A DNA stretch of 43,844 bases from positions 1 to 43,844 of the IMG/VR virus record IMGVR_UViG_3300037483_000080. One strand, given 5' to 3'. How positions within the stretch are numbered: position 1 is the first letter of the stretch; every line of letters starts with the position of its first letter. The notes beneath the pieces are model-generated. The model did not search any database. It was not told the origin of the DNA and saw only the letters and a program-made list of their open reading frames with translations. This stretch comes from a virus. Lineage: Duplodnaviria > Caudoviricetes. Made by a program: the position numbers and the translations under genes. This document shows, one piece after another, positions 1 to 43,844 of this stretch.

Positions 1-127
1 GAACTGCTGCGGCTGCGCTGTTCGGTACGGCTGTAGCGGCATGCGTCGTCACGTTCGGATCGCTGGGTGCAGCCGCGAACGGCACGGCAGGTTCTGCTCC
101 GACCGTTGACGGCACGATCGGGTATTT
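1..127. repeat. Terminal direct repeat (copy 1), identical to 43718-43844; contig is circular
   Basis: Exact 127-nt identity between the two ends; one ORF reads through the junction. Confidence 0.97.
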
Positions 128-287
128 CGGCGGGCTTGGTTCGATCAACTTGGGCGCTGGCACGGTGCATACCCTGTTGGCCGGCACGCCATACGTTGGA
201 CCTGGCGAGTTCATCGGCTACAAACACACCGCCGGAACGATTCTTAGCGGCTTCCGCGTGACCATCGCGTACGTGATGGGGAAGTAA
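1..287 (+). CDS. 3' part of putative capsid decoration/cement protein (142 aa in total; begins at 43576 and crosses the junction)
   Basis: Own translation across the junction, ending ...NGTAGSAPTVDGTIG...RVTIAYVMGK* (TAA 285-287); follows the major capsid gene; Gly/Thr/Ala-rich. Confidence 0.7.
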   Translation, partial: TAAAALFGTAVAACVVTFGSLGAAANGTAGSAPTVDGTIGYFGGLGSINLGAGTVHTLLAGTPYVGPGEFIGYKHTAGTILSGFRVTIAYVMGK

Positions 288-384: not shown

Positions 385-1572
385 ATGAACATCAACTGGT
401 TTTCAAATGCGCCGTGGGCAGCCACGGGCTACGGCGTGCAAACAAAATTGTTCGCGCCGCGCCTAAAAGAACTGGGCCACGACATTGCGATCACGGCGTT
501 CTATGGCCTAGAAGGATCGGTCATCAACTGGAACGGTATCCAGATTTACCCGCGTTGGGCGCACGGCTACGGCCTGGACATCATGGCGGCGCACGCGAAG
601 CGCCAGAAGGCGGACATCGTTTTAACGCTGCTGGATGCGTGGGTCTTCGATGCAAACTCATTACGCGCGCAGAACGTCAAGTGGGTGCCGTGGTTCATGG
701 TGGATGGTGAGCCTTTGCAGTTGGCGGTGTACAGGCAGATCAAGGAATCGTTTCGTCCGATCTGCTGCTCACTGAACGCGCAACGGGCCTGCAAGTTAGC
801 CGGACTTGACGCGCTCTATGTGCCGCTCGGCACGGATTGCAGCGTGTACAAGCCGCTGGGCGACAAACAGGCTATTCGTGGCATGATGAGGTTTCCAACC
901 GACAAATTCATCGTCGGCATGGTGGCAGCGAACAAAGACCCTGGCGATCGCAAATGCTTCTTTCAGCAGATTGAAGCGTTCGCGCAGTTCCACCGCAAAC
1001 ACCCGGACACATTTCTGTACATGCACACGCAGCATCAGGTACAGCCGGGCGTAGGTTATGCGGCGCTGAACCTGAAAGAGTACGCGGAGTATCATGGACT
1101 TGTCGAAGAAAGTGATTTCGGCTTCTGCGATCAATACTGCTACATCCTCGGCTTCTCGGATCAGCACATGGTCAACACCTACAACGCCTTTGACGTACTC
1201 CTGAACGTATCGCGCGGCGAAGGCTTCGGCGTGCCGATCGTTGAGGCGCAAGCGTGCGGTACGCCCGTCATCATTGGCGACTGGACAGCGATGGAAGATT
1301 TGTGTTTCGCTGGCTGGAAGGTCGGACGCAAAGAGGCAGCGCGCTCGTGGAACGGGCAAGGCTCGTATCAGTTCACGCCTACCGTCGAAGCGATTACCGG
1401 GCGGCTAGAATTGGCCTATCGCACATCTGGCAAAAAATGGCCGGAGGCGGCAGAAGGCGTCAAGGTTTACGATGCCGACTACATCACCGAACATCACTGG
1501 AAGCCAGCGATTGCAGCGCTTCAAGACATGCTCAGCGGGCAGGATACCGAATTGAAGTTGGTGAAGTTCTAA
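385..1572 (+). CDS. GT-B fold glycosyltransferase (GT4 family)
   Basis: N-terminal TGYG motif; C-terminal SRGEGFGVPIVEAQACGTPVI (E-x7-E) motif; ATG 385 with GGGGGA SD. Confidence 0.92.
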   Translation: MNINWFSNAPWAATGYGVQTKLFAPRLKELGHDIAITAFYGLEGSVINWNGIQIYPRWAHGYGLDIMAAHAKRQKADIVLTLLDAWVFDANSLRAQNVKWVPWFMVDGEPLQLAVYRQIKESFRPICCSLNAQRACKLAGLDALYVPLGTDCSVYKPLGDKQAIRGMMRFPTDKFIVGMVAANKDPGDRKCFFQQIEAFAQFHRKHPDTFLYMHTQHQVQPGVGYAALNLKEYAEYHGLVEESDFGFCDQYCYILGFSDQHMVNTYNAFDVLLNVSRGEGFGVPIVEAQACGTPVIIGDWTAMEDLCFAGWKVGRKEAARSWNGQGSYQFTPTVEAITGRLELAYRTSGKKWPEAAEGVKVYDADYITEHHWKPAIAALQDMLSGQDTELKLVKF

Positions 1573-1805
1573 TGAACATGCTAACTGGATTTGTCTCACG
1601 TCGAACCGATGGATTATTCGATTGGTACAAGTTCGATGTAAAGCCACCTTCATCTGGCGATGCTTCCATTGGCTGTAAATTGGCTGGTATTGTACGAGAG
1701 GTACATCCAGCGTGTAACGATAACGGCGGTACACTGGCGATTCTGAATTACCCTCCGGGTACAAATATATGGGTTGAGATAGTCAATGAAAATCCAACTC
1801 CTTAA
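1572..1805 (+). CDS. Hypothetical protein (77 aa) in the modification cassette
   Basis: ATG overlaps the GT4 stop (TAATG); end overlaps the next start. Confidence 0.6.
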   Translation: MNMLTGFVSRRTDGLFDWYKFDVKPPSSGDASIGCKLAGIVREVHPACNDNGGTLAILNYPPGTNIWVEIVNENPTP

Positions 1806-3051
1806 CCCGCCAATCCACCACTACACCGGGCGGCAGTACCGCATGATGCCGCCGATCAACCTGCCGACGATCGCGGCGCTGCTGTCTGCCGCCGGCCACT
1901 ACGCTGAGGTAATCGACCTCGAAGCGTTGGCCGTCACGCCAGAGCGGCTTGAGCATGCGTACAAAGCGCAGCGCGAGTCATGGCCGGACGTGATCGGTAT
2001 CACGAGCATGACGATCACTTCACGCGGTGCAATGGATACCGTGCAAGCGCTGCGCCGTGCTGGCTTCGACGGCAAGATCATCGCGGGCGGCATCTACCCG
2101 ACGGAGAACGCGCAGAAGTGTATCGATGACTGGGGCGTTGATCTCGTTGTTGTCGGTGAGTGCGAGGGCAACGTTGTAGAGATATTCGAGAGGGGTGCGC
2201 CTGGCGTACATCTCGGCCAGCGTATGCCGATCGAGGACATCCCTGCACCCGACTGGCAGCACCACAACCCGCCGATCGGCGATTACAACGGCAACACGCG
2301 CTTGATCAATCCGAAGCCGGGCATCAGCATGTGGTCACGCGGGTGCCCGTTCCAGTGCGTGTTCTGTAGTGACAATCTCTTCAATGGGCAGCCGATCCGC
2401 TATCGCCCGCCGGCGCTCATTGAGCAAGAGATGCGCGAACTCAAGCGGCGCGGCTGCCTGAATTGCTATGTGTACGACGATGAGCTTGTCGGCACGAAGT
2501 TGCCGCATGGCTGGATCGAGGACATCGCCGATCGCATCGAAGACTTGCATTTGCCGTACATCACGCAGGGGCACTGCAACCGCAACACCATCACGCCTGA
2601 ATCAATGAGCCACGTCAAGCGCAGCGGTTGCAGGGTGATCTTTTGGGGCCTGGAATCGTTCAGCGAAAACGTGCTCCTGGCGATCAAGAAACGGATCAAA
2701 GAAGTGGACATCTGGCACACGCTCAAGGTGTCGCACGAAGCCGGGATCGAGAACGCCGTATTCACGATGGTGGGCAACTACAAAGAGACTGTAGCCGATT
2801 TGGAGCACACCTACAACTGCTTGAAGAAAGCGCACGCCGATGGCCTGATCCAATACCGGCAAACAACCGTCTGCACAGGGATGCCTGGGACACCGCTTGA
2901 GAAGATCATGAAGGCTGAGGGCTGGTGGACAGAGCCGCCGGAGTACGGGCCGCAGATGGCGCAAGTCTACAGCCCGACGCCGTGGTTGACGATGCAAGAG
3001 ATCATGTACTGGGCGAACAAATTTCAGGAAACGTGTCCGGGGGTGCCATGA
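1786..3051 (+). CDS. Cobalamin-binding radical SAM enzyme (class B methyltransferase-like)
   Basis: B12-binding domain (PPINLPTIAALL...PDVIGIT...IIAGGIYPT...VVVGECE), then SRGCPFQCVFC (CxxxCxxC), YDDE and GLES motifs. Confidence 0.92.
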   Translation: MKIQLLNPPIHHYTGRQYRMMPPINLPTIAALLSAAGHYAEVIDLEALAVTPERLEHAYKAQRESWPDVIGITSMTITSRGAMDTVQALRRAGFDGKIIAGGIYPTENAQKCIDDWGVDLVVVGECEGNVVEIFERGAPGVHLGQRMPIEDIPAPDWQHHNPPIGDYNGNTRLINPKPGISMWSRGCPFQCVFCSDNLFNGQPIRYRPPALIEQEMRELKRRGCLNCYVYDDELVGTKLPHGWIEDIADRIEDLHLPYITQGHCNRNTITPESMSHVKRSGCRVIFWGLESFSENVLLAIKKRIKEVDIWHTLKVSHEAGIENAVFTMVGNYKETVADLEHTYNCLKKAHADGLIQYRQTTVCTGMPGTPLEKIMKAEGWWTEPPEYGPQMAQVYSPTPWLTMQEIMYWANKFQETCPGVP

Positions 3052-3281
3052 ATAAAGCAACGAAGGTAAGGCAGGCTGAAGTAAAAACTGAAGCGGCGGT
3101 AGAAGAAGTAGAAACTCGCGGCAACACCGCAATCATGCGAGTAGTCACGCCGTACACCGACGACATGATGACGGTACTCGAAGAACGCCTCGACGCTCAA
3201 TTTGATGATGGCTTCAAAGTTGCCGCGTGTGTTCCGTACGGCGTCGATCGCATGGTCGTCATTTTGCAGAAGGCCGCATGA
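3048..3281 (+). CDS. Hypothetical protein (77 aa)
   Basis: ATGA overlap with the upstream stop; plausible composition. Confidence 0.65.
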   Translation: MNKATKVRQAEVKTEAAVEEVETRGNTAIMRVVTPYTDDMMTVLEERLDAQFDDGFKVAACVPYGVDRMVVILQKAA

Positions 3282-3463
3282 GTAATAAAAGTGCGCCTTT
3301 CGGCGCACTGCTGGATAACATCCTATCAGATATTCAATCGGGCGCTATATCATTCGCCACGGATTTACGGGTCGCTCGGCCTCTGACGCCACTTAATCGG
3401 AGTGTGATGTCTAGCGATAAATCAATCCAGCGAATATATTATAACACGGTTTGTCAAGCATGA
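3278..3463 (+). CDS. Possible 61-aa translational-coupling ORF antisense to the candidate ncRNA
   Basis: ATGA overlaps at both ends; the peptide is largely the translation of terminator and promoter DNA. Confidence 0.35.
   Translation: MSNKSAPFGALLDNILSDIQSGAISFATDLRVARPLTPLNRSVMSSDKSIQRIYYNTVCQA
3284..3309 (-). terminator. Intrinsic terminator
   Basis: Minus strand AGTGCGCC-GAAA-GGCGCACT followed by TTTATT. Confidence 0.8.
3284..3431 (-). ncRNA. Candidate ~148-nt structured ncRNA (unrecognised family)
   Basis: Extended -10 just upstream; 5' GCUGGAU pairs with AUCCAGC directly before an intrinsic terminator; nested internal helices; no useful minus-strand ORF. Confidence 0.7.
3438..3446 (-). 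promoter_or_regulatory. Extended -10 promoter TGTTATAAT
   Basis: Predicted +1 (G3431) is 7 nt downstream and is the first base of the closing stem. Confidence 0.6.
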
Positions 3464-4113
3464 ACAAAGCGATCGTTACATTCGGCGTAGGACCACACCG
3501 CGAATACCTTAGCATCGCGCGCCCATCGTTTCAGGCGTTCGCTAAGCGGCACGGCTACGACTATTTTGAAGCCGATCAAATCGGGAGGCTGCGCCCGCCG
3601 GCCTGGTACAAGGTGAAGTGCTTGATCGATCTGCTTAAGCAGTGTGACCTGGCGGCATTCTTCGGCTGCGATCTCGTCGTCGTTGACGGGCGCGATGACT
3701 TTCCGCTACCTGATACCGATTGGTGGCAGGCTATGGTCACGCACCACACGCAATGTGGTGACGTTCCGAATGACGACATGTGGATTTGCAAGCGTGACAT
3801 GCTGCCGTGGCTTGAGCGTGTGTGGGCGCTTGGTGGCAAGTACCTAAATCATGGGTGGTGGGAGCAGGCTGCGCTCATGGAGTTGATGGCCTACGACCCG
3901 GCGATTAATAATTTTCCGACGCATTGCAATGACATCTGCAACGAACTCTACCAGCATACGCTCTGGTTGCCGAATGAGTGGAACGTGCATTGCTGGGACA
4001 AGCCGCAGCCGTCGCATACGCGCATTCAGCACGCGACGATGTGGCCGGACAGGGCGTCGATTATGAGGCAGTGGGCGCACGAAGCTGAGGAGTGGATCGG
4101 TGAGATACGTTGA
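3460..4113 (+). CDS. GT-A glycosyltransferase, GT34 (GMA12/MNN10)-like
   Basis: FAKRHGYDY, PAWYKV, WWEQAAL and LPNEWN motifs; usual DxD appears as GCD. Confidence 0.75.
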   Translation: MNKAIVTFGVGPHREYLSIARPSFQAFAKRHGYDYFEADQIGRLRPPAWYKVKCLIDLLKQCDLAAFFGCDLVVVDGRDDFPLPDTDWWQAMVTHHTQCGDVPNDDMWICKRDMLPWLERVWALGGKYLNHGWWEQAALMELMAYDPAINNFPTHCNDICNELYQHTLWLPNEWNVHCWDKPQPSHTRIQHATMWPDRASIMRQWAHEAEEWIGEIR

Positions 4114-5170
4114 TCCCGTCGGCAAGATTCTAGCGCACGTTGACCGCCTGGCCGCGTGGAAGCAGGGCACGCACGCAGCGCCGATCAACATCGAGTGGGA
4201 CTTGAGTAACCGCTGCTCGTTGGGTTGCGCGGGTTGCCACTTCGCTTACACGCACACGCGCGGGCCGCTGGCCGGCAAGCGCGACAAGCCGCATGACTTC
4301 GTTGACGGCGGAGATATTGCAGACACGAACATGGTCAAGCGCGCGCTGTACGAAGCGAAGGAAGCGGGCGTGTTGTCAGCGACGTGGACCGGCGGCGGTG
4401 AGCCGACATTGCATCCAGATTTTGACGAGATCGTGCGCTATGCAGATTCGCTTGGCCTGCGGCAGGGGCTGTACACGCACGGCGGGCACATCAACGAAGC
4501 GCGCGGGAAGATGCTTGGCGATGTGTTAGATTGGATCGTTGTGTCGGTGGATTGCGTTGACGCTGAATCATACGCGGCCTACAAGGGCGTGTCTCAAAAC
4601 TGGTTTAGCAAGATGCTGGCTGGCGTGTCTAATCTGCGGCATGGTAAATCAGTCGTCGGTGTGTCGTTCTTGCTGGGCAAGGACAACTGGACGCAGGCGC
4701 GCGACATGTTAAAACTTGCGCGAGAGATGGGCGTTGACTACGCCACGTTCAGGCCGATGATTGAGTACAGCATGGACGATCCGTCAATGCCTGCCGGTAA
4801 CGTATCGTGGATTACGCAGGCGCTGCCCATGCTCGAATTGCTGTCTAATCAACCTGACGTTGAGTGCATCCCTGAGCGGTTCATCGAATACCGGGACTGG
4901 CAATACCGGCGCGAGTATGGCGCGTGCTACGGCATCCGCTTTAACACCGTGGTCACGCCGAACGGCAAGGTATTCGTATGCGTCAATCGGCGCGAGTTTG
5001 CCGGGAGCGAGTTGGGCGATCTGTCGGTTGAATCGTTCGCCTCTATTTGGGCGCGGCACCCCGGCGAATGGCGCGACTTCGAGAAATGCCGTGTGCTGTG
5101 CCGCTTGCACATGATCAACAAAACGGTGTGGGATGTTCACCGCCCGCGCCAGCATGTGGAGTTTGTCTAA
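4100..5170 (+). CDS. Radical SAM enzyme with C-terminal SPASM/twitch Fe-S domain
   Basis: LSNRCSLGCAGC, TGGGEPTLHP; C-terminal ACYG...VTPNGKVFVC...LGDL...IW...C..C. Confidence 0.92.
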   Translation: MRYVDPVGKILAHVDRLAAWKQGTHAAPINIEWDLSNRCSLGCAGCHFAYTHTRGPLAGKRDKPHDFVDGGDIADTNMVKRALYEAKEAGVLSATWTGGGEPTLHPDFDEIVRYADSLGLRQGLYTHGGHINEARGKMLGDVLDWIVVSVDCVDAESYAAYKGVSQNWFSKMLAGVSNLRHGKSVVGVSFLLGKDNWTQARDMLKLAREMGVDYATFRPMIEYSMDDPSMPAGNVSWITQALPMLELLSNQPDVECIPERFIEYRDWQYRREYGACYGIRFNTVVTPNGKVFVCVNRREFAGSELGDLSVESFASIWARHPGEWRDFEKCRVLCRLHMINKTVWDVHRPRQHVEFV

Positions 5171-5757
5171 TGACTGTCACGCCGCGTACCCCAGGCATGG
5201 ACGATCTCGTACAGCAGTTGCGCGAGTTGGCCGATGTCGGCACCGCTGATTTCGTCATCGCATCAGACACATACTGGTCCTACGAGCATTTGCAAACTGC
5301 TCTCGATCGGCACCGCATCACAATTTACCAGCAGGAGTTGGAGCAGTGGCCGACGTTGAACACGTCAAACGTGTTCGTGTACCAGGAATACCGCGCGCCA
5401 ATCGGCAACCTTGAGAGCGGAACCGCAGTATTCAGCGTGCAGCAACTAAACGGCGGCACGGCACCCGCCTACACCGTGGACTACAACACAGGCGTGATCA
5501 CGTTCACGGCTGACACGGCAGGCACTGCCTACATGTTGTCTGCGCGCGCCTACGATGTCTACGCGGCGGCTGCGGATGTGTGGCGCGCTAAGATGGCGAA
5601 TGCGGCAAAGTATTTTGACTTCTCGACTGATAATCACAGTTTCAAAAAGTCGCAGTTCAAGTCCAATTGTTTAGAGATGGCTAAGTATTTCGACAGTCAG
5701 AGTATGACTAACTCGTTTAGCGTGACAACTATCACGCGCTCGGACGTGAACGCATGA
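5170..5757 (+). CDS. Head-tail connector (neck) protein, putative
   Basis: First gene of the neck block; YDVYAAAADVWRAK motif typical of adaptors. Confidence 0.6.
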   Translation: MTVTPRTPGMDDLVQQLRELADVGTADFVIASDTYWSYEHLQTALDRHRITIYQQELEQWPTLNTSNVFVYQEYRAPIGNLESGTAVFSVQQLNGGTAPAYTVDYNTGVITFTADTAGTAYMLSARAYDVYAAAADVWRAKMANAAKYFDFSTDNHSFKKSQFKSNCLEMAKYFDSQSMTNSFSVTTITRSDVNA

Positions 5758-6125
5758 CGGCGCTCTTAAACAGCAGTGAACTAACGTGGATGCGCGCAGT
5801 CGTTGACGGCGTGCTGCCGGATACGTGCAACATCCTCAGTGAGTCGCTTGCGCCTGACGGCGAGGGCGGCGTTACCTCGACGTGGGGCACCGTGTACACT
5901 GACAGGCCGTGCCGGCTGGATAGCGCTGTTCGCACCGCTGACGAAGTGTCGATAGTGGGTGGCGGTCGCAAGGCAGTACATCAATACATGCTCAGTCTCG
6001 CGGATGACACCACGATCAACGCAGGGAATCGGGTCGAGATCAGCACATCCACGTATACCGTCGTTAGCGTCAATGATAATCAGTCGTGGATGGCAGTTGG
6101 CCGCGCCGTGTTGGAGTTGATCTAA
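5754..6125 (+). CDS. Head closure/stopper protein, putative
   Basis: PDGEGG...W.TV...PCRL pattern; gene order. Confidence 0.7.
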   Translation: MTALLNSSELTWMRAVVDGVLPDTCNILSESLAPDGEGGVTSTWGTVYTDRPCRLDSAVRTADEVSIVGGGRKAVHQYMLSLADDTTINAGNRVEISTSTYTVVSVNDNQSWMAVGRAVLELI

Positions 6126-6493
6126 TGAGCAAGATTAAACTTGACACGACGAAATTGGATCAACTTCTGGCTTCGATACCCGGCGATGTAGATGAGGTTG
6201 TCGGAAAAGCGGCGATGCTGATCGAGCAACAGGCGAGGTTGCAAGTTAATAGTTGGCCCAGGGCAAAGATGTATGTACGCACTGGCGCGCTGGCAAATGG
6301 CATCATGGCAGAACGGATAAAGCGCGGTTTTTGGTCTGTGCATGATAGCGTAGAGTACGGCGTATTTTGGGAACTTGGTCATCACAATATCTTTTTGCGC
6401 CGCTATGTGCGCAGGCCGTTTTTCACACCCGCGATCATGTACGTGGGTTCAAAGTTTGCGCAGATATTAGCGCAAGGATTATTCAATGAGTAG
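6125..6493 (+). CDS. HK97 gp10-like tail completion protein
   Basis: VRTGALANGI, VEYGVFWELG and RPFFTPA motifs. Confidence 0.8.
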   Translation: MSKIKLDTTKLDQLLASIPGDVDEVVGKAAMLIEQQARLQVNSWPRAKMYVRTGALANGIMAERIKRGFWSVHDSVEYGVFWELGHHNIFLRRYVRRPFFTPAIMYVGSKFAQILAQGLFNE

Positions 6494-6707
6494 GCCAAAT
6501 CTATACGCTATCGAAACTCGACCAGGAAAAACGCGCATTTTTTCCGTTAGCCAAATCGTTGTAGAGGCTGGTTTGACATCAAGGCGGGCGGCGCGCAGAC
6601 TCATTAATCGCGCAGTAAAATCAGGTGAAGTAAAACGGCTGAGGCGCAGGAACGGGCACGGCGGGACAATGATACCAAAAGAGAACACATCGAATGAGCG
6701 CATTTAA
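6486..6707 (+). CDS. Small basic protein, S4-like or winged-helix nucleic-acid-binding domain
   Basis: IVVEAGLTSRRAARRLI resembles the S4 motif; overlaps both neighbours. Confidence 0.5.
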   Translation: MSRPNLYAIETRPGKTRIFSVSQIVVEAGLTSRRAARRLINRAVKSGEVKRLRRRNGHGGTMIPKENTSNERI

Positions 6708-7113
6708 CGCGCTGGGCGCTGCGATCTACAGCAAACTTTCTGGTGGCACTGCGCTGACAGCACTGCTCAGCGGCGGCACGGCATCGATCTACAACGTCGA
6801 AGCGCCGTTCGAGGCGTCCTATGATTACGTGATCTTCAACGTGCAGGGCGGCGTTGAGTCGAACGACAGCGGACACCGCGTCAAGGACATTACTCTACAG
6901 GTACGCGCTTACTCAACGGCGCTTAATCGCGCGGGCACAATAGATTTGCGCTGTGATACGCTATTGCACGGCGGCACGTTGAACATCACAGGCTGGACGT
7001 GTGTGTTTGGGCCGGTGCGGGCGCAGGACATCGAGATCGTGGAATACGACGAAGCACATAGGCCGATCTACACACGCGGCGGGCTGTACGACATCAAAAT
7101 CGAGAAGGTGTAA
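6694..7113 (+). CDS. Tail terminator protein, putative
   Basis: AIYSKL...IYNVEAP...YVIF pattern; precedes the tail tube gene. Confidence 0.72.
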   Translation: MSAFNALGAAIYSKLSGGTALTALLSGGTASIYNVEAPFEASYDYVIFNVQGGVESNDSGHRVKDITLQVRAYSTALNRAGTIDLRCDTLLHGGTLNITGWTCVFGPVRAQDIEIVEYDEAHRPIYTRGGLYDIKIEKV

Positions 7114-7122
7114 AGGAGCATC

Positions 7123-7539
7123 ATGCCAGAATATGCTGGAAGCGCAGTTGTTTTGCAGTGGATTTGGAGCGGCGGCACATTGAACATGAGCGGCGACACG
7201 CGCAGTTGCAACATCACGCCGTCAATGGACACCATCGACGCAACGGCTGGCAGCGACCCTAACAAGGTGTATCTGCCGTCATTCGTTGACTGGGAAGTGT
7301 CGTGGGATGGCGTTGCGCAGAACGGCACCGCTGGCACCGTGTACTCACAGGCGCTTTTGCCCGGTGCTAACGGCACGGTGCAGGTCGGGCCGTATGGCAC
7401 CGCCGGGAGCGCGCTAAAGTTTTCCATGCCCGCGTTTTGCATGGGCGGCGCGATCACGCTGCCATACTCGGACGTGGCGAGTGTCACCGCGTCGTGGAAG
7501 ACGGCGAGCGGCGGTAGCGCAACTTGGGGCACGTTCTAA
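7123..7539 (+). CDS. Major tail (tube) protein
   Basis: Strong AAGGAG SD; size and position before the chaperones and tape measure. Confidence 0.78.
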   Translation: MPEYAGSAVVLQWIWSGGTLNMSGDTRSCNITPSMDTIDATAGSDPNKVYLPSFVDWEVSWDGVAQNGTAGTVYSQALLPGANGTVQVGPYGTAGSALKFSMPAFCMGGAITLPYSDVASVTASWKTASGGSATWGTF

Positions 7540-7823: not shown

Positions 7824-8017
7824 GCGGGGTGAAGGGACACGCAACACCGATCGAGTATTGGCGCTGGGAGTTAGCGGAGCGGTTCGGCTGGCCGCTTGAA
7901 TACGTTGATGGATTGAGCGTTGAAGACATGCATGAGTTCTGGCAGATTGACGACGGTCGAAACCGAGTCATGAGCGAGCAACGTGCAAGGGCGATTGCTA
8001 AATGCCGCAAAAGATAG
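7796..8017 (+). CDS. Frameshifted extension of the tail chaperone (gpGT-like)
   Basis: -1 frame reads LSKRVYYALSGVKGHATPIEYWRWELAERFGWPLEYVD... Confidence 0.75.
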   Translation, partial: LSKRVYYALSGVKGHATPIEYWRWELAERFGWPLEYVDGLSVEDMHEFWQIDDGRNRVMSEQRARAIAKCRKR

Positions 8018-10518
8018 CGAGCCTCTACGCGGAAATTGGCGCGGATACACGCGGGCTTGAAAAGGGCTTGCAGCAAACACGCCAAGGGCTGCAGGGTGCT
8101 GGCAAGGATGCCGACACGCTCGGTGAGAAGGTCGGCAAGTTTGCTACGGGCTTCGGCAAGTTCGCGCTGACCGCTGGCGTCACTGCGCTTGGTGGCGCGT
8201 TGGTTCAGGCCGTCAAGTCGGCGTCAGAACTTGAAACAGAGTTCGCCAAAATTGCCGCTTTGACAGACACGCCACGCGAAGCGATTCAGGGCCTGACTAA
8301 AGACGTGATGGCGATGTCGCGCGAGATGCCGATCAGCGCGAAGGAGTTAGCGAAGGGGCTATACTTCATTTCGTCGTCAGGCTTCCAGGGCGCGCAAGCG
8401 ATGGACATCTTGCGCGCGTCTGCGAAGGCAGCATCGGCTGGGTTGGGCGAGACGAAGACGATCGCGGATGCTGTGACATCTGCGCTCAACGCCTACAAGC
8501 TCGAAGGCGCTGACGCTGCACGCATCACCGACATTTTGACGCAGGCCGTGAAGGAGGGTAAGGGCGAACCTGACGAGTTAGCGGGTTCGCTTGGACGCGT
8601 TCTACCTATCGCGTCAGCCGCCGGCGTGTCAATGGAGCAAGTCGCCGCGAGCATGGCGACAATGACACGCACCGGCCTAACCGCGGACGAAGCAGCAACT
8701 GCGCTGCGTGGAACCATCGGTGCATTGCTTGCGCCGTCGAAGCAGGCCAAGGACGCGCTGGGCGCGATTGGGTTGAGCGTTGACGATCTCGCAAAGATGC
8801 TCAGAGAACGCGGCTTGGTGGAAGTGCTGCAAACGCTGATGGAGCGCACGCACGGCAACGTGGAAGCGCTCGACGCGATCATTCCGAATGTGCGCGCGTT
8901 GACGGGCGTGTTGAGCACCGCCGGTAGCCAGGGCGAAGCATACGCAGAGATTCTTGGTAAGATGAAGAACGCGGCGGGCAGCACCGATAAAGCGTTCGCT
9001 GAGATGTCTAATACGTTTGAGTTCAAGTCGAAGAAGGCGCAGAACTCACTCGAAAACTTAGGGATTGCCGTTGGTCAGAAACTACTGCCTCCGCTCGGCG
9101 ACGCCGCAGACGCTGCCGCTGTGTTGATCAACTGGCAGGACAAGGTTGACGAAGCGTTTGCGGGCACAAAGAAAATAATCGAGCGGACAGCGAAGTCATA
9201 TGAAGAATACCGCGATAGCATCCTGGCAACAGCGATCGCGGCTGGCAAGATGAATGAGCAGGAAGCGGAACAGATCAGGACTGGAAAGACGCTGGCCGAA
9301 ACAACGTTCGATCTGTCAACGCTGACACAGGATCAGGCAGAGGCCTTCAACGCTGAGATGATGAAGTCCGCCGCTCTCACGGGAAATTACAAAGACCTCG
9401 CTGAACTAACTGCAATTCTAGCCGATCGCTTCGGGCTGATGTCAGAGGCGCAATTTGCAGCCGCAAAGACGCAAGAGAAACTCAACGATATGGCCGCGTT
9501 TAGCGCCACGGTCCACGCGGCGTCAGCGGAGTCAATCGAGGCGGAAGCGAAGGCGCTTGAGTTCAGCGCGATCGAAACTGAGAAGGACGCGAAAGCAAAG
9601 AAGGAACTTCTCGAAGTCGTAGCCGAGTCGAAGATCGCTTACTCCGATTTTGTGGAGTCCATCACAACTGCAAACGGTGGCGTGAAGTTCGACGCGCTTG
9701 ACGGTGCACAGCAAACGATCGCGCGCCTTGAGCAGACGATGATGGAGAATCCAGAGAACGCCGAGAACTACGCATCGAAGATTCGCGCAATCAAGGAGCA
9801 GTTCGGCTTGATCTCTGGCCCAGCCGAAGCAGCAGCAGCAAGTTTCCGAGTGCTAGAGGAGATGTGGATTACTAGAAACATTTCAACCACTGGCTATGCT
9901 ACCGCGCTTGGCAAGATTCAGCAGGCGGCAAAAGACGGCAAAGTCGAAGTTGATGAACTCGGCCTAAAGACTGGCGAGGCGGCGGCTTACATGACCGCAG
10001 CGACCGGCAATGCAAACACGGCATCTGACGACATCGTGAGGACCGGCAAGAAGACAAAGCAAGACTTGCTTGACGAGATGGGCAACAGCCTCGAAGGGCA
10101 GCAAACTAAACTGAGTGGAACGATCAGCAGCAGTATGATCTCAATCTCGACGGCAGTGTCAACAGCGAAGAGTGTTATCAAAACCGGCGTCGGCGAGATC
10201 AACGGCGCGCTCGACACTATCCCGCGCATTATTGACATTGAAGTCAGGTTACGCACACCGGCCAACTTGCCGGGCGGTGGCGGCGCAGGTGGCGGACTAC
10301 CGAACAGTTATTCACGCGGCGCGAATTTCATTGTGCCGCCTGGGTTCACGGGCGACAACTATCCGCTAGGGTATGCTAAGTCAGGCGAGCATGTAATCAT
10401 CTTAAACGAGCAACAGCAGCAGGCGATCAACAATCAAATGACGATGAACGTGTACGCGCAGAGCGCGCCCAACGTCATCGATGAATTTAACCTAATGCGA
10501 TCAATGGTGGGTGCTTAA
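8002..10518 (+). CDS. Tape measure protein (TP901-type core)
   Basis: IASLYAEIGADT N-terminus; AATALR core motif; 838 aa, helical. Confidence 0.93.
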   Translation: MPQKIASLYAEIGADTRGLEKGLQQTRQGLQGAGKDADTLGEKVGKFATGFGKFALTAGVTALGGALVQAVKSASELETEFAKIAALTDTPREAIQGLTKDVMAMSREMPISAKELAKGLYFISSSGFQGAQAMDILRASAKAASAGLGETKTIADAVTSALNAYKLEGADAARITDILTQAVKEGKGEPDELAGSLGRVLPIASAAGVSMEQVAASMATMTRTGLTADEAATALRGTIGALLAPSKQAKDALGAIGLSVDDLAKMLRERGLVEVLQTLMERTHGNVEALDAIIPNVRALTGVLSTAGSQGEAYAEILGKMKNAAGSTDKAFAEMSNTFEFKSKKAQNSLENLGIAVGQKLLPPLGDAADAAAVLINWQDKVDEAFAGTKKIIERTAKSYEEYRDSILATAIAAGKMNEQEAEQIRTGKTLAETTFDLSTLTQDQAEAFNAEMMKSAALTGNYKDLAELTAILADRFGLMSEAQFAAAKTQEKLNDMAAFSATVHAASAESIEAEAKALEFSAIETEKDAKAKKELLEVVAESKIAYSDFVESITTANGGVKFDALDGAQQTIARLEQTMMENPENAENYASKIRAIKEQFGLISGPAEAAAASFRVLEEMWITRNISTTGYATALGKIQQAAKDGKVEVDELGLKTGEAAAYMTAATGNANTASDDIVRTGKKTKQDLLDEMGNSLEGQQTKLSGTISSSMISISTAVSTAKSVIKTGVGEINGALDTIPRIIDIEVRLRTPANLPGGGGAGGGLPNSYSRGANFIVPPGFTGDNYPLGYAKSGEHVIILNEQQQQAINNQMTMNVYAQSAPNVIDEFNLMRSMVGA

Positions 10519-13004
10519 TGACCGGACAGTGGTCGATCATCGTGCCGGAAGCGCGAACTAACCTAGTAAAAAATCCCAGTGTTGAAACTAACACGACTGG
10601 GCACGCGGCTACCGGCTCTACCATTTCAAGAGATTCAGCCTACGCGCGCGCCGGAGTTTTTTCATTGAAGATCGTCACGGACGATGCAGGTGCGTCTGAG
10701 GGTACGGTCTACAATGGTGGTGGCGGCACTGGCGCTATGCCGGTTACGATCGGGACTTCGTACACCGCATCTGTTTTCTTGCGCGGTGACGGGACCGTGT
10801 ACCTGGGCATATATTGGTACACCACCAGCGGATCGGTTTTTGTCAGCACGTCGTTTTCGAGCGTGTTGACATTAGCGGACAGTGGCTGGACCAGGTACAC
10901 TATTACCGCTACAGCGCCTGCCACATCAGACTATGCCCAAATCCGCGTCATCACATCGGCTCAACAGTCTGCCAGATTCTGGTGTGACGGCTTCCAGTTC
11001 GAGGCCGGGGCGTATGCCACTACCTACATTGACGGCGATCGGCATGGTTGCTACTGGACAGGGCTGTACCACGCCAGCACATCAGCGCGACACGCAAATT
11101 ACAGATTAGGTGGTCGCGTTGTAGACATCGAAGATACCTACGGCATTCGCGTGCTGAACTCATCAGGGGCCGGAGCTCCGACGGTAGACGTGATGACACA
11201 GGCGCTTGCCTTGCAGCCTGGGAGCACGTACATCAACGACGTTTACCGTGAGCGCACGCTAAACCTCGTGCTCGCGCCGTACAGCGCAACGCTGCCCGGC
11301 TTACATCTTCTGCGTAAGAATCTATGGAACCTGATCAAGCCTGAAGCATACGGAGAAAATGATCCGTTTCTATTGGCCTACACCGGAAACACGCGCAAGG
11401 TATACGGCGCATTCCGCTATGACGGCGGCTGGGACTTCGGGCAGTTGTCGGGAGGCGCGTACAAAGTGGAGCAGCAAGCCAAGGTTTCGTTGCGCCTAGT
11501 GGCATGTGATCCGTACTGGTACGAGGACGATCAGCAACAAGAGACGCTCGAATTCACGGATTCGCTTGCGTCTAACAATTATGCTGCGGCGCGTATCAAC
11601 GGCAACTGGCAGAATCTTGGGACCGGGTTTAACGGCCAGGTAAATTGCATAGTCCCAGACACAAACACGGGCAGAGTATATTTTGGTGGAGCGTTCACAA
11701 CCGCAAACGGCGTAACCGTCAACGGCGTGTGCTATTGGAACGGAGAAACGTTTGTGGCAATGACGGGCGCTGGCGGAACAGGTGTAAGCGGAGGCGCGGT
11801 CAACGCGCTCGCCGTTGCGCCAAACAATGATGTGTGGATCGGTGGAGCATTTACATCTTGCGACGGCGCTACTGCAGATGGCCTGGCCCGCTGGAATTAT
11901 GCAGCATCAACTTACACTAAGTTTACAAACGGCGCGCCAGGAGATATATTCAACGCGATCGCCATAGATAAAAACGGGATCGTTTATCTCGGCGGATTAT
12001 TTGCTAACTGGGACGCGAACGCAAATTCAGACAATATTGTTTCGTACAATGGAACCGCGTTCGCCCCGTTAAGCACAGGTACTAATGGTCAAATATACAG
12101 CCTTGCTACAGGAATAGATGGATCGACGCTGTACGTGGGGGGTGCTTTTTCATCACCGCAAACGCGCGTCATGTCGTGGAACGGATCGGCGTTTTCTGCA
12201 ATGGGCGGCGGCGCAAGTAGCATTGTCAGATCAATTCTTGCCGCAATCAATGGCGATGTATACATCTGCGGCGACTTTGCGACAACTCCTACAACGTCGT
12301 ATATCGCGCGCTGGAGCGGATCATCTTGGTACTCGCTCGGTTCTGGCTTAAGTCTTTCTGGGTATAAACTATTCCCAGACCAGGACGGGCGCGTAGTTGT
12401 CGTAGGCCCATTTTCGACTGCTGGCGGAATAACAGCGTATGGTATTGCGGCGTGGAATTTATCTGTATGGTCAGGCATTGATTTGACGCCGCCCGGAGCC
12501 GCAGAGGTTATCTGCGGGGCGTCTGCCGGGGAGTCTATGTATCTTGGCTTTGATACAGCCGGCACCGCAACTTCAAGCGGCCTTGCAACTTTAATAAACA
12601 ACAGCACATCAGACGTGTACCCGATCATCACTATTACCGGGCCGACTACCGGGTCTGCAACATTGCAGTGGCTTGAGAACCAGACAACTGGTGATCTGCT
12701 GTACCTCAACCTCGTGATTCTACCGGGAGAGATCGTTACGATTGATCTTAGGCCTGGTGCTAAGTCGGTTAATTCGAGTTGGCGCGGCGCTTCTACCACG
12801 TCCAATCGAGGAACCGTATACTTTACGAGCGGCGCGCGGGGGCAAATTTATGATGCAGTGCTTCCGGGTAGCGACTTCTCGAACTGGCATATCGCGCCAG
12901 GCTCAAACACGATCGCGGCTTTCGTCAGTGGCACGACTACCGGCGTCGTCATGGTCGCATCGTGGCAGACGCAGCACAACACCGTGGACGGAGCCAGCGC
13001 ATGA
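10518..13004 (+). CDS. Enlarged distal tail (Dit-like) protein with carbohydrate-binding module and beta-propeller insert
   Basis: NLVKNPSVE...DGFQFEAGAYATTYIDG module; LVACDPYWY and YPIITITGP Dit motifs; repeated (L/V)Y.GG.F...W.G blades. Confidence 0.75.
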   Translation: MTGQWSIIVPEARTNLVKNPSVETNTTGHAATGSTISRDSAYARAGVFSLKIVTDDAGASEGTVYNGGGGTGAMPVTIGTSYTASVFLRGDGTVYLGIYWYTTSGSVFVSTSFSSVLTLADSGWTRYTITATAPATSDYAQIRVITSAQQSARFWCDGFQFEAGAYATTYIDGDRHGCYWTGLYHASTSARHANYRLGGRVVDIEDTYGIRVLNSSGAGAPTVDVMTQALALQPGSTYINDVYRERTLNLVLAPYSATLPGLHLLRKNLWNLIKPEAYGENDPFLLAYTGNTRKVYGAFRYDGGWDFGQLSGGAYKVEQQAKVSLRLVACDPYWYEDDQQQETLEFTDSLASNNYAAARINGNWQNLGTGFNGQVNCIVPDTNTGRVYFGGAFTTANGVTVNGVCYWNGETFVAMTGAGGTGVSGGAVNALAVAPNNDVWIGGAFTSCDGATADGLARWNYAASTYTKFTNGAPGDIFNAIAIDKNGIVYLGGLFANWDANANSDNIVSYNGTAFAPLSTGTNGQIYSLATGIDGSTLYVGGAFSSPQTRVMSWNGSAFSAMGGGASSIVRSILAAINGDVYICGDFATTPTTSYIARWSGSSWYSLGSGLSLSGYKLFPDQDGRVVVVGPFSTAGGITAYGIAAWNLSVWSGIDLTPPGAAEVICGASAGESMYLGFDTAGTATSSGLATLINNSTSDVYPIITITGPTTGSATLQWLENQTTGDLLYLNLVILPGEIVTIDLRPGAKSVNSSWRGASTTSNRGTVYFTSGARGQIYDAVLPGSDFSNWHIAPGSNTIAAFVSGTTTGVVMVASWQTQHNTVDGASA

Positions 13005-14152
13005 TCAACGACGCGCGGAACGTAAAGGCCGAATACGAGTTGTGGTTGCTCACGGATGCCGGTGTGCGGATTGCGTCGCTCGACATGGTGCAGTCGTTCA
13101 CGTACACGAAGGCCGTCAACAGTTCTGGCGGTTTCAGCCTGACGCTGCCGCACACGTTCGATAAGTCGCTGCTTGAAAAAGATCGCCGCATCGTGATCTA
13201 CCGCAAGCCCAATGGCGGCGCGATGTCACGCGACTTCACCGGCATCATTGAGACGATCAACAAAGCCGGGCGTGTGCCTTCCTATACCGTGACGGGCTGC
13301 TCGTTAAATGGCCTGCTCGAACGGCGCTGTGTGTTGTACTACGCTAAGAGCACAAAGGCGCTGTATTCAGGGCGAGAGGCTGACGACGCAATGAAGCAGA
13401 TCGTCAGGGAGAACATGGGATCGTCTGCGACGACTGGAAACGGGCGCAAGGTCACGAACTCGATCTCGTCTACCTATTTCAGTGTGCAGGCTGACACGTC
13501 GCTTGGGCCGCAGATCGATAAATCGTTCGCGTTCTTGCGCGTGGCTGACGTGCTACGTGATATTTCTGAGATGTCGCGCCAGGACACGCCTGAGATTTTC
13601 TTTGAGATGGTAGCGACATCTGAATCAGCGTTTGAGTTTCAGACGTTTAAGACGATGCGCGGCGCAGACCGGCGCTATTCCAGCGGTCTTAGCCCGATCG
13701 TGTTCGGCGTTGAGTACGGCAACCTTGACGATCCTGTGCTGTCTGAGTCATGGGCGGATGAAATCAACTACGCCGTCGCTGGCGGTCAGGGAGAGGAAAC
13801 GAAACGCGCGCTTGGCACCGCGGAGGACACCGCTAGATCAGGCGCGTCGATCTTCGGTAAGACCGAGGGCTTTATCAACGCGACTAATATTTCAGGTAGT
13901 GACGCAGCAGCAATTGTTGCGCTCAACGATCGCGCTAAGGAGCTGGTAAACAAGAACAGACCCAAGCGCCACTTCACGGCGCGCATTATCAACACAGCGG
14001 GCTGCGCATACGGCAAGCACTGGGGCTACGGCGACTACATCACAGCCTCATACTACGGCGAGCAGTTCAACGCCATGATCAAGGCAGTTACGGTGACGCC
14101 GACGCCGCAGGGCGGAGAGAAGATCGACGCCAGGATCGAGGCCTACACGTGA
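13001..14152 (+). CDS. Baseplate hub/Tal-like tail protein (siphovirus Gp37-like)
   Basis: Follows Dit; YGNL, VAGGQGE and YGKHWGYGDYIT motifs. Confidence 0.72.
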   Translation: MINDARNVKAEYELWLLTDAGVRIASLDMVQSFTYTKAVNSSGGFSLTLPHTFDKSLLEKDRRIVIYRKPNGGAMSRDFTGIIETINKAGRVPSYTVTGCSLNGLLERRCVLYYAKSTKALYSGREADDAMKQIVRENMGSSATTGNGRKVTNSISSTYFSVQADTSLGPQIDKSFAFLRVADVLRDISEMSRQDTPEIFFEMVATSESAFEFQTFKTMRGADRRYSSGLSPIVFGVEYGNLDDPVLSESWADEINYAVAGGQGEETKRALGTAEDTARSGASIFGKTEGFINATNISGSDAAAIVALNDRAKELVNKNRPKRHFTARIINTAGCAYGKHWGYGDYITASYYGEQFNAMIKAVTVTPTPQGGEKIDARIEAYT

Positions 14153-14415
14153 ACCACGTCGAGATGACGCTGAGCCACGAGAAACGTCTCGCGTTTCTCG
14201 AGGCGCTTGAGCATCCCGTATTTACTGCACTTGGCGCGAAGACGGTCAACATCGCGCAAGTGACAGTAGCGCATGGGCTAGGATACACGCCAACGATGAT
14301 CAGTGTGCTGATGAATAGCGCGGGTACGGTGTGGCGTAGCGCGGCGAGTGATGCAACAAATATCTATCTCAAGGCAGACGCCGACGGGCGCACCTGTGAG
14401 GTTTTTGTAAGGTGA
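14149..14415 (+). CDS. Small tail-associated protein
   Basis: VTVAHGLGYTP motif common in tail-fibre domains; GTGA overlap. Confidence 0.6.
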   Translation: MNHVEMTLSHEKRLAFLEALEHPVFTALGAKTVNIAQVTVAHGLGYTPTMISVLMNSAGTVWRSAASDATNIYLKADADGRTCEVFVR

Positions 14416-14419
14416 TCGC

Positions 14420-14785
14420 ATGACAACCATGATCTATATCGAAGCGCCTGGCACGCGCAACTACATCCACTATCGCGGCGACACGTTCTATGATTCGTTC
14501 GTGTTCGAGGATACTGCGGGGAGCGCCGTTGATCTGACGGGCTGGTCGGCGTCTCTGCAAGGCTGGCCGGCAGGTGCGCCGAATGGTAGCACAGCCGTGA
14601 TCGCGCTGACATCTGGCACGCCAGCATACGTCACGCTTGGCGGCACCGCTGGCAGCGTGACTATCAAGGCAGCCGGGACCGTAGCTGACGACTGGCCGGT
14701 TGACACGTATGATTACCAGTTCAAGTTCACAGACGCGGCTGGCGACATTCAAACCTATCTCGTCGGCACGATCGATCAACGCTAG
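14420..14785 (+). CDS. Baseplate adaptor (BppU N-terminal-like)
   Basis: RGDTF, VDLTG, YDYQ...TYLVGTI pattern. Confidence 0.65.
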   Translation: MTTMIYIEAPGTRNYIHYRGDTFYDSFVFEDTAGSAVDLTGWSASLQGWPAGAPNGSTAVIALTSGTPAYVTLGGTAGSVTIKAAGTVADDWPVDTYDYQFKFTDAAGDIQTYLVGTIDQR

Positions 14786-14793
14786 GACATACC

Positions 14794-16185
14794 ATGAGCA
14801 ACGAGGTAACGCTAAACTTCACTGACACCACGGTTACACTCAAGAGCATCGGCGGCTCCTCCGCTGCCGATGTGACCTCCGCCTTCGCGGCGCACAACGC
14901 TGACGAGGGCGCGCACGCAAATATCACTTCGTTTGTCAGCATAGAGGCGTACGGCGCAAGCACTGCGCTGGCCGATAACGCCTCTGCGATTCAGGCGGCG
15001 CTAGATGCCGCTGGAGGCGTTTTTGTGCCAGAGGGTACGTACACTTTTTTATCGACGATCACCCTAAACGATCGGCAATCGATCATCGGGAGCGGACGAA
15101 ATAGCGCACTAAAATTCATGCCTACAATTCCAGGTGACGTTGGAATTTACGCTACGGATAAGACTAACATTATCCTACAAGACTTCACGATCAAGGGCGG
15201 AAATCTAAACAGCGCTATAGCCTTACAACTGTCTAATGTGACTGATTCAGTTGTTTCAATTGCAATAGACGGAGCGTGGATCAACGGAGGGAACCCGGCT
15301 TACTCGTTCAGCGACTGCGCGATCAATGTCACAAGCGTAGCACCTAGTAATTCATTCGACGTATCTATAGAAAATATCTACATCAACGCGATCATTGGGG
15401 ATGGGCTTCAGATCACTGGCAATTCTGGCAATATCGTATCCGTGCGCGGGGGAGTAATTGGAGGATTAGACGGATGGTGCATTGATTGCGATCAGGGAAC
15501 CGAGGAGCCAATTATCACCCTTGAATCCGTTGTGGTCCAAGGCGGATACCTTGGACTATTGAGGGCGCGGATGCTTGCCTCGTCAGCAATAAGGAATTGC
15601 CATTTTGAGGCAACTCCCGGAAACACAACGCCACCTATTCAGCTAATAGGGGCTGGAACAACATCGGCGATGATTATCGATGGTAATAATATAAGTCAGG
15701 CTGCTGCGGATTACGCGATTGATTTTGCTTTTACCGCAGGAGCGTCCGCAATAAGAATTAAAAATAACCGCTTTACTGGAACGAGTGGTAAAAAGGCCGT
15801 TCACTTCGGGTACACAGGGGCAGGTATTGAATTTGGTCCAAACTACTACAACGGATATGGCTCTACAAACCCGGAAACGCTATGCGATCTTGGAACGTAC
15901 TACGTTAACGATGCGTTACTAATTGACAGCGGAACTGGCGGCGGAAGAATTGTGTATCTTAACGGAATATCTAACGATCCACCAGCAACAATAATTGACG
16001 TGCGTGGTAAAATAAAAGCATTTTCACACGGTGGAGCAACTTATACAGCGGCACCGTCAGCAGGTGATTGGTCGAGAGGTGATATGGTGTTAAACTCTAA
16101 CGCCACCAGCGGACAACCCATGGGGTGGATGTGTACTGTAGCCGGCACACCTGGAACATGGGTTGCTATGGCTAATCTCGCTTAG
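14794..16185 (+). CDS. Tail spike / receptor-binding protein, pectate-lyase-like beta-helix
   Basis: SIEAYGA...DNASAIQAALD...VFVPEGTY; C-terminal GWMCTVAGTPGTW; more AT-rich than flanks. Confidence 0.85.
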   Translation: MSNEVTLNFTDTTVTLKSIGGSSAADVTSAFAAHNADEGAHANITSFVSIEAYGASTALADNASAIQAALDAAGGVFVPEGTYTFLSTITLNDRQSIIGSGRNSALKFMPTIPGDVGIYATDKTNIILQDFTIKGGNLNSAIALQLSNVTDSVVSIAIDGAWINGGNPAYSFSDCAINVTSVAPSNSFDVSIENIYINAIIGDGLQITGNSGNIVSVRGGVIGGLDGWCIDCDQGTEEPIITLESVVVQGGYLGLLRARMLASSAIRNCHFEATPGNTTPPIQLIGAGTTSAMIIDGNNISQAAADYAIDFAFTAGASAIRIKNNRFTGTSGKKAVHFGYTGAGIEFGPNYYNGYGSTNPETLCDLGTYYVNDALLIDSGTGGGRIVYLNGISNDPPATIIDVRGKIKAFSHGGATYTAAPSAGDWSRGDMVLNSNATSGQPMGWMCTVAGTPGTWVAMANLA

Positions 16186-21009: not shown

Positions 21010-21029
21010 CGCGTTCCTCCTGTATGATT

Positions 21030-21155
21030 ACTGAGCCGATCGACCTGCCGCTCGGGCGGTCTCGCATATCCTCGCCGATGGTTTATGACACGGCTCGCGC
21101 ATTGCGTCTTAGAGGCTAATCGGCATATACAGTATGCGCTCGATCGCGCGCCAGC
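21030..21155 (-). ncRNA. Candidate ~126-nt structured RNA, possibly related to 3284-3431
   Basis: Nested helices CGATCGA/TCGATCG, CGCATA/TATGCG, GCCGAT/ATCGGC; motifs shared with the 3.4 kb RNA. Confidence 0.5.
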
Positions 21156-21183
21156 GCAAGCCTAACATTTGTACTATTGACAA

Positions 21184-29182: not shown

Positions 29183-29186
29183 TTCG

Positions 29187-43575: not shown

Positions 43576-43844
43576 ATGAGCGACTTCAATGTTCAGATTG
43601 CATCGTTTGACATCGGGCCGGTCGTAGGCGCGCAGAGCATCCCGGCTTTCCGCGTGCCCGAAGAGGGTGGCGGCATCACCGTGATCGATGGTCTGTTGAC
43701 ACTCAACAACACCGGCGGAACTGCTGCGGCTGCGCTGTTCGGTACGGCTGTAGCGGCATGCGTCGTCACGTTCGGATCGCTGGGTGCAGCCGCGAACGGC
43801 ACGGCAGGTTCTGCTCCGACCGTTGACGGCACGATCGGGTATTT
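43576..43844 (+). CDS. 5' part of the putative capsid decoration protein (continues at 128-287)
   Basis: AAGGAG SD; ATG 43576; frame open through the junction. Confidence 0.7.
   Translation, partial: MSDFNVQIASFDIGPVVGAQSIPAFRVPEEGGGITVIDGLLTLNNTGGTAAAALFGTAVAACVVTFGSLGAAANGTAGSAPTVDGTIGY
43718..43844. repeat. Terminal direct repeat (copy 2)
   Basis: Identical to 1-127. Confidence 0.97.

Follow-up and report, generated by a model that had tools for sequence, protein, structure and literature searches.

A Gly-Thr-aliphatic motif over-represented in predicted surface proteins of phages with a cassette GT4 gene is a candidate threonine O-glycosylation sequon

Introduction

In Bacteroidetes, proteins are O-glycosylated by a periplasmic, host-encoded system at the sequon D-(S/T)-(A/I/L/V/M/T). 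Gtf1/GtfA, which we take to be the cytoplasmic GT4 protein O-glycosyltransferase of serine-rich repeat adhesins, has as its target (Gtf1) the Ser-rich repeats of one adhesin, and B736L presumably belongs to chlorovirus capsid glycosylation. Among phages, virion glycosylation was reportedly described by Freeman et al. in 2023 for the mycobacteriophages Che8, Corndog and Myrna, and the glycans of Che8 are reported to be attached to C-terminal serines. Passages of two papers propose that the mycobacteriophages' own glycosyltransferases coat the capsid and the tail tube (PMC12363180, PMC11256854). A preprint on the Corndog baseplate had no passage on virion glycosylation, and a search of the full-text literature, outside which most subscription papers lie, returned no published sequon for a phage virion.

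Here, we analyzed a 43,844-nt circular phage record (the window), which has a 127-bp terminal repeat and a siphovirus-type structural operon on the + strand. In sequencing runs, a single DNA holder was listed, which may be the source, and no RNA holder. Like the mycobacteriophage system, the window carries phage-encoded glycosyltransferase genes (GT4 and GT34-like). Unlike that system, its glycosyltransferase cassette is placed inside the head-neck operon, and its GT4 had no mycobacteriophage match among 50,697 phage records; by GT4 homology it is thus not a member of that system.

Results

A glycosyltransferase cassette lies inside the structural operon

The cassette follows the putative decoration gene, precedes the gene of the head-tail adaptor and comprises a GT4 gene, a B12 radical SAM gene, a GT34-like gene, a radical SAM/SPASM gene and two small ORFs (Table 1). 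The decoration protein has no family match, and we infer its role from the position of its gene behind the capsid gene. The tail tube was assigned by a PHROG match to major tail protein (E 2e-4) and by its structural model, which matches the siphophage tube 8gtb_A (TM 0.71). The GT34-like protein likely extends the glycan. Its family was taken from its Atlas neighbours at 0.98, in which 48-87% of members have PF05637, and from a cluster-mate in L028 that matches PF05637 itself (E 1e-4). The B12 radical SAM protein, whose cluster is present in 5/74 cassettes, is likely a methylase of the glycan or its precursor. In the gap that separates the decoration gene from GT4, an Rfam match to int-alpA RNA (300-363, +, 38.2 bits, cut-off 35.8) could regulate the cassette. 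Elsewhere in the window, two ORFs on the − strand are of repetitive build, one at 28367-29245 being Ala-rich with AAARAA and HDDAW repeats (phrog_18326), and the other, at 30319-30549, being built of GTGPG/GT repeats; this second ORF is possibly no more than a tandem repeat's shadow frame.

Table 1. Structural and cassette features of the window; motif means G-T-[AVI] unless another word is given.
Feature	Position	Strand	Remarks
Putative decoration protein, 3′ part	1..287	+	1-127 is the terminal repeat
GT4 (GT-B) glycosyltransferase	385..1572	+	PF00534, phrog_2170; sole constant cassette gene
Small cassette ORF	1572..1805	+	no family
B12-binding radical SAM protein	1786..3051	+	PF04055 and PF02310; variable accessory gene
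Small cassette ORF	3048..3281	+	no family
GT34-like (GT-A) glycosyltransferase	3460..4113	+	itself without Pfam match
Radical SAM/SPASM protein	4100..5170	+	PF04055 and PF13186; variable accessory gene
Putative head-tail adaptor (neck)	5170..5757	+	4 G-T-A sites; role from position, no family match
Head completion protein	5754..6125	+	PF05521 weak, phrog_615; 1 motif
Neck1-type protein	6125..6493	+	phrog_5; no motif; family GTA 1 vs 3.4 expected
Tail terminator	6694..7113	+	PF11367; 3 motifs
Tail tube protein	7123..7539	+	4 motifs: 7324, 7333, 7372, 7396
Tape measure protein	8002..10518	+	PF10145; internal control, no GTA
Dit-like minor tail protein with beta-propeller	10518..13004	+	phrog_106, PF12768; 5 motifs
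Gp37-like hub/Tal protein	13001..14152	+	PF14594; 1 motif
Small tail-tip ORF	14149..14415	+	1 motif
Small putative baseplate adaptor	14420..14785	+	phrog_1084 (function not known); 3 motifs
Pectate-lyase-like tail spike	14794..16185	+	PF12708; 8 Gly-Thr, zero motifs
Portal	39075..40523	+	PF05133; 2 motifs; family not enriched (GTA 10 vs 8.1 expected)
Major capsid protein, HK97 fold	42697..43563	+	G-T-A at 42865 (T58) and 43108 (T139)
Putative decoration protein, 5′ part	43576..43844	+	whole protein 142 aa, spanning the circular join; 6 motifs altogether

G-T-[AVI] exceeds expectation in the window's predicted surface proteins

A preliminary description of this DNA had pointed to a recurrent GTAG(S/T) motif in the virion proteins. 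On translation, the stretches that it quoted were all correct, namely GTAGSA at 81-98, 43108-43125 and 7396-7413, GTAGTV at 7324-7341 and GTAGSV at 14642-14659, and we located the related DTAG(T/S)A at 5512, 12552 and 14510. Its eight hand counts of Gly-Thr likewise matched ours (decoration 7/142 aa, tube 6/138, adaptor 5/121, terminator 4/139, neck 4/195, major capsid protein 4/288, TerL 0/413 and tape measure 3/838). The decoration gene spans the terminal repeat, and the match at 43798 therefore duplicates that at 81.

We assigned the proteins to virion, internal and non-structural groups by family and position, and compared observed counts with those expected from 2000 within-protein shuffles. 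In the 13 virion proteins (3512 aa), GTA was found 19 times vs 4.0 expected, a count reached in 0/2000 shuffles, and was the top tripeptide (Poisson 5e-8; corrected for 8000 words, about 4e-4), while none was found in the five internal or assembly proteins (1489 aa, 1.3 expected) and two in the 43 non-structural ORFs (7705 aa, 2.9 expected). Similarly, G-T-[AVI] was counted 32 times vs 8.6 expected in virion proteins (0/2000 shuffles), vs 2 (2.1 expected) in internal and 4 (6.4 expected) in non-structural proteins. The longer word [GD]TAG[ST] occurred 8 times vs 0.11 expected in the virion group, and GT 57 times vs 36, whereas its reverse TG (34 vs 36), like the other reversed words, had no excess. 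A composition-corrected comparison thus leaves the excess standing in virion proteins only, and an artefact of composition is ruled out, as the excess survives the within-protein shuffles. The codons differ, as had been remarked before: the 32 sites are spelt by 24 different 9-nt strings, which rules out a DNA repeat as the source of the motif. The pattern is thus real and specific, G-T-[AVI] being over-represented in the predicted surface proteins.

The core of the motif is defined by relatives of the window

The class G-T-[AVI] was defined on a set of 289 proteins from six virion families, which included the window and was thinned to less than 70% identity. In this set it was found 677 times vs 118 expected, while [AVI] preceded by Thr without a leading Gly (non-Gly-T-[AVI]) was at 0.92-fold, and G-S-[AVI] was counted 142 times vs 87. 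Other candidate words were close to or below expectation (D-T-G 0.64-fold, [ST][GA]S 0.94-fold, [ST][GA][not G]T 1.15-fold). Where Ser or Thr stood three positions ahead of the motif Thr, the excess rose to 12.6-fold, and TAG[ST] without a leading Gly was also enriched (49 vs 9.1), in part through overlap with the core. DTAG had no excess in relatives (6 vs 3.2), and neither it nor GTAG(S/T), both earlier taken as the unit, is the core, which is G-T-[AVI].

The most enriched family was the head-tail adaptor, with 133 GTA vs 10.5 expected; the GTA excess was absent from the family counts of scaffold, MuF, chaperone, neck1, portal and the GT4 itself. Conserved G-T-[AVI] columns numbered 26 and were spread over all six families and folds, compared with six for the next X-Y-[AVI] class. 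At these columns Thr (808) and Ser (162) were the two commonest residues, followed by Ala (109) and Gly (78). In the capsid, T136 of the window lies in G-T-M, and the same column is G-T-[AVI] in 46/52 relatives. The excess of the lineage lies mostly in such inherited columns, while rare columns contributed 139 sites vs 72 for the reversed control T-G-[AVI].

GT4 is the constant gene of a variable cassette

The window's GT4 matches Glycos_transf_1 (PF00534) at 35.5 bits (cut-off 26.4). The stretch E-G-F-G-x-P-x-x-E is invariant in GT4, its E279 and E287 (E-x7-E) being kept in 6/6 and their equivalents in 7/7 aligned homologues. In 78 of the 84 capsid-anchored loci, some of which lie on a common contig, GT4 follows the capsid or decoration gene, and the remaining six end before its place. 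Among the 74 loci with a complete cassette, every other gene cluster occurs in 20 or fewer. In 37 cassette representatives that were scanned, the genes that could be named were mostly GT2, GT34, GT4, methyltransferases, an epimerase, UDP-galactopyranose mutase and radical SAM, and an ABC transporter set was also found among the partners. In two loci, ABC sugar-transporter genes, glycoside-hydrolase-like ORFs and a tRNA-synthetase-like domain lie between GT4 and the adaptor (L031:12512-17798, L123:4891-6557).

The preliminary description had named radical SAM enzymes among the readers of the motif, which was not borne out: ORFs with CxxxCxxC occur in 12/74 complete cassettes, and the motif excess is 6.5-fold with them (n=5) and 6.0-fold without them (n=33). 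Minimal cassettes, made of GT4 and one GT34-like gene, keep an excess of 3.1- to 7.5-fold.

By tblastn, GT4 matched 6/50,697 phage records (4 phages). A single-protein scan with GT4 gave no match, whereas an alignment-based scan did, and roughly 1000-2500 matching stretches were estimated for viral contigs. A scan of genome contigs found three full-length GT4 matches among 80 loci, but covered 3/64 parts and therefore says little on hosts. The hosts or bins of GT4 carriers vary widely (Microcystis, Pontimonas and an Anaerolineales bin, into which one related contig falls). Deep support in the GT4 tree is weak, and the motif-linked part of the family is not firmly resolved in it. Single loci differed from the common arrangement: L625 (G044) has a tandem pair of GT4-family genes, a GT4 of the window's family (L501:9110-10102) has cellular-looking surroundings, with a peptide-synthetase-like gene nearby and no virion genes, and two HK97-head phages without GT4 (L198, L201) still carry the cassette GT2 gene.

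The excess is much weaker in relatives without GT4

Capsid and tube have homologues in a sister lineage (80 loci and two cultured phages) in which no GT4 match was found; GTA was counted there 2 times vs 5.3 expected in the capsid and 5 times vs 4.2 in the tube. In the two cultured sister phages the capsid is without the GGT loop after the spine helix. Calculated per genome over capsid, adaptor, terminator and tube, the excess had a median of 6.0-fold in the GT4 lineage (n=38, range 3.05-10.6) and of 2.06 in the GT4-less sister (n=24, range 0.63-3.42), a contrast that its p of 5e-11 overstates because the genomes are related. In the GT4 lineage, tail-tip proteins of 38 different clusters gave 79 vs 25 expected, as against 55 vs 48 for those of the sister. 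The accessory proteins of the sister had 84 vs 36.6, which indicates a real background without GT4. Five cultured GT4-less siphophages summed to 37 vs 31. In searches of whole records, GT4 was missing from all 35 control records, of which 17 were at least 90% complete, and was recovered in 3/3 positive controls. The comparison with cassette-less relatives, which the preliminary description had proposed, thus shows the excess to be much weaker there. A close GT4-less relative of the window phage was not found, and as its tube has no match in cultured phages and its portal only distant ones, no close cassette-less relative was found in culture either.

The motif recurs with related GT4s in other phages

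L612 is a contractile-tailed myovirus with a Bxz1-like module, whose cassette consists of GT4 and a GT34-like gene. Among its tripeptides GTA ranks first (26 vs 3.5 expected, in 9/24 proteins), with 8 motifs in the sheath and 4 in the cement protein, and 0 both in the putative tube beneath the sheath and in the capsid protein. Four cultured relatives of L612 without GT4 have 1, 0, 0 and 1 motifs in the orthologous sheaths, and the excess over the module is 5.2-fold in L612 vs 0.9- to 1.5-fold in these four. In further, out-of-sample DNA of L612, four baseplate or tail proteins have 9, 9, 4 and 2 motifs and six have 0; the wedge has 9, whereas its GT4-less orthologues have 0, 3, 0 and 2. The cultured phage Mae-JY09 (PP395641.1) likewise has GTA as its top tripeptide (20 vs 4.4), and neither its cassette nor that of L612 has a radical SAM gene.

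In L089, the capsid protein is of a different family and motif-free, and two small downstream proteins have 5 and 4 motifs. No GT4 was found in the locus of 80 relatives of this capsid, 24 of which had sufficient upstream flank, and 93 similar small proteins of GT4-less relatives have 0-2 motifs each, and the direct homologue in L468 has 0. L049, L086 and L581 repeat the L089 pattern. Small orphan ORFs of about 90-145 aa with 3-5 motifs each were seen behind capsid genes in L049:7380-8691, L086:7235-7513, L089:12534-13307 and L612:9690-9977; in phages with a motif-free capsid, such motif-dense ORFs are possibly dedicated glycan carriers. Near-regularly spaced motifs, 10-13 to a protein, were observed in tail proteins of Mae-JY09 (L010, 218 aa, 20757-21413), L581:9897-10985 and L495:11974-13797.

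A tally from gene calls alone, over loci of at least 2500 aa, gave 2.65-fold for the window lineage (106 loci) and 2.51 for other heads with a close GT4 (10 loci), vs 1.43 with a more distant GT4 (30 loci) and 1.57 and 1.10 in two GT4-less groups (43 loci each). DSL-LC06-like phages, which are without the window's GT4 family (L333, L342, L345, L364), have a different top tripeptide, SAG or DSA; in L342, SAG was counted 19 times vs 3.4 expected in 11 proteins and DSA 15 times vs 2.6, and D-S-A-G may possibly be a second sequon. The annotation of DSL-LC06 holds several other glycosyltransferases.

The link holds for part of the GT4 family

In the phiPsal1 HK97-head lineage, the core four proteins did not separate phages with GT4 (2.3-fold, n=11) from those without (1.8-fold, n=4; p=0.66), while a wider protein set did (103 vs 35.3 expected with GT4, 13 vs 8.4 without), the latter resting on two GT4-less clades of related sequences. 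No excess was found in phages with more distant GT4s (TJE1, GTA 1 vs 2.8; S-CBS4, 4 vs 2.9; L598, 5 vs 7; L525, 16 vs 14), and the link thus holds for only part of the GT4 family. Two low counts have no bearing on the link, L569 (1 vs 2.4) being a locus without surface-protein genes and L501 (2 vs 4.4) being cellular-looking. The podovirus-like G042 (L610, L632, L633) had 32 vs 19.6 in total. The preliminary description had taken the whole virion as a substrate, but zero motifs were found in the major capsid proteins of L049, L086, L089 and L612, as in the window's spike and neck1 proteins.

Motif sites lie in loops and at the starts of strands and helices

Monomer models were used for the secondary structure of the sites. 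In the capsid model (pLDDT 83, HK97 fold), T58 lies in coil inside the E-loop hairpin, and T136-T142 directly after the spine helix, at the G-loop. In the model of the tube, which has the siphophage tube fold (pLDDT 85), T93 belongs to the loop of a hairpin, T19 and T85 lie where strands begin, and T69 and T72 where the helix begins; the elements that carry the motif Thr presumably face outward, as in tube structures. For phage P74-26, contacts of the G-loop with the decoration protein and with the neighbouring E-loop are described (PMC6775164). These contacts would place the window's G-loop on the outer side, where it may be partly covered. The placement of several sites at the beginning of a strand or helix in the monomer models counts against their reading as sugar attachment sites.

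Discussion

Judged from sequence comparison, G-T-[AVI] is probably a Thr O-glycosylation sequon for the phage's own GT4. This reading stands on the motif excess, its restriction to virion-surface families, the fixed place of GT4 behind the capsid genes and the co-recurrence of both elsewhere; the excess on surface proteins, together with its recurrence in unrelated viruses that share GT4, makes it likely that the motif marks sites of sugar attachment. GT4 would be made late, with the structural proteins, from a shared operon. It would read a Gly-Thr-small aliphatic turn, often after [T/S]-[G/A/S], on subunits or assembled particles, and add the first sugar to the motif Thr in the cytoplasm. 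Swappable downstream genes (GT34, GT2, methyltransferases, epimerase, UDP-galactopyranose mutase, radical SAM) would then extend and cap the glycan, and different cassettes would give each phage a different coat at the same address. Where the capsid protein is without sites, small motif-dense accessory proteins may carry the coat. Such a coat might serve for masking, for host attachment or for stability.

We lean, by a narrower balance, towards a broader proposal: a mobile GT4 clade may be a cytoplasmic, sequon-reading O-glycosyltransferase with the address G-T-[A/V/I], and wherever it has landed, in sipho- or myoviruses and in different hosts, surface proteins would have evolved the address or carriers would have been added, with the swappable cassette setting the glycan. 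The preliminary description had suggested that exposed proteins converged on the motif. The recurrence of the motif with a related GT4 in unrelated structural modules agrees with this, but within the lineage of the window the sites lie mostly in inherited columns.

Of the other explanations, structural bias combined with descent survives best, and we consider it unlikely. Gly-Thr-aliphatic would then be a favoured, ancestral turn-to-strand element, with GT4 as a linked passenger, which would suit the background of 1.1- to 2.3-fold in GT4-less phages, the sites at hairpins and strand starts, the mostly conserved columns of the lineage and the 1-4 GTA that GT4-less HK97 capsids retain. It is at odds with homologous GT4-less folds, where capsid, tube, sheaths and wedges are without the excess, with the near-expected counts of the five cultured GT4-less siphophages, with a single motif class common to six unrelated folds, and with the asymmetry of sheath and tube in L612 (8 vs 0).

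There is a similarly small chance that the motif has another reader, such as a host cytoplasmic enzyme, the product of a non-cassette phage gene or something that binds it non-covalently, or that the modification is other than a sugar. For phage tail proteins, host-encoded modification has been reported (PMC13445384), our co-occurrence tests covered the genes in the fetched flanks, and some wider-family GT4s occur without the motif. Against this, the motif crosses sipho- and myovirus modules along with GT4, the hosts or bins differ widely, and the cassette partners are mostly sugar enzymes.

A GT4 whose substrate is DNA bases or the host surface, and to which the motif is unrelated, is improbable. 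Phage glycosyltransferases do act on 5hmC, and their clusters can adjoin structural genes (10.1101/2023.12.21.572611); the window has a C5 cytosine methyltransferase (23228-24409, −), and the best PDB matches of GT4 include small-molecule and lipid GT4s. But unlike in phage 5hmC DNA glycosylation clusters, this methyltransferase is far from the cassette (about 18 kb, on the opposite strand), no adjoining dioxygenase was detected, and a Pfam scan, which could miss a divergent one, found no dioxygenase family in the 67 ORFs; moreover, the co-occurrence of GT4 and motif would be left unexplained. Direct reading or modification of the motif by radical SAM enzymes is very improbable and largely refuted, since, although two such genes are in the window's cassette, the excess is equal in cassettes without them and neither Mae-JY09 nor L612 has one.

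If G-T-[AVI] is indeed the sequon of GT4, a three-residue sequon and one soluble enzyme would make glycan coats predictable from genomes, a function would be given to a widespread phage GT4 gene and to small orphan genes behind capsid genes, and a one-enzyme, site-addressable O-glycosylation reaction would be available for the bacterial cytoplasm. As cultured Mae-JY09 has both enzyme and motif, the claim is directly testable.

Compared with Che8, the motif of the window consists of internal Thr dispersed over many proteins, and its capsid ends in Gly and its tube in Phe. Like Gtf1/GtfA and B736L, the window GT4 is in the GT-B fold family; its profile matches to chlorovirus-type B736L (3oy2, E 2e-9) and to Gtf1 (4pqg, E about 5e-4, weak) reach no further than the common C-terminal region and do not surpass those to small-molecule GT4s. 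Unlike the target of Gtf1, its motif is of three residues on many folds. In this it resembles the Bacteroidetes sequon, which also has three residues, a hydroxyl followed by a small aliphatic, over many unrelated proteins, with the difference that Gly, not Asp, stands ahead of the Thr, as the counts for DTAG and non-Gly-T-[AVI] in relatives show. As far as we searched, virion glycosylation is known and documented for few phages, and what would be new here is the recognition rule.
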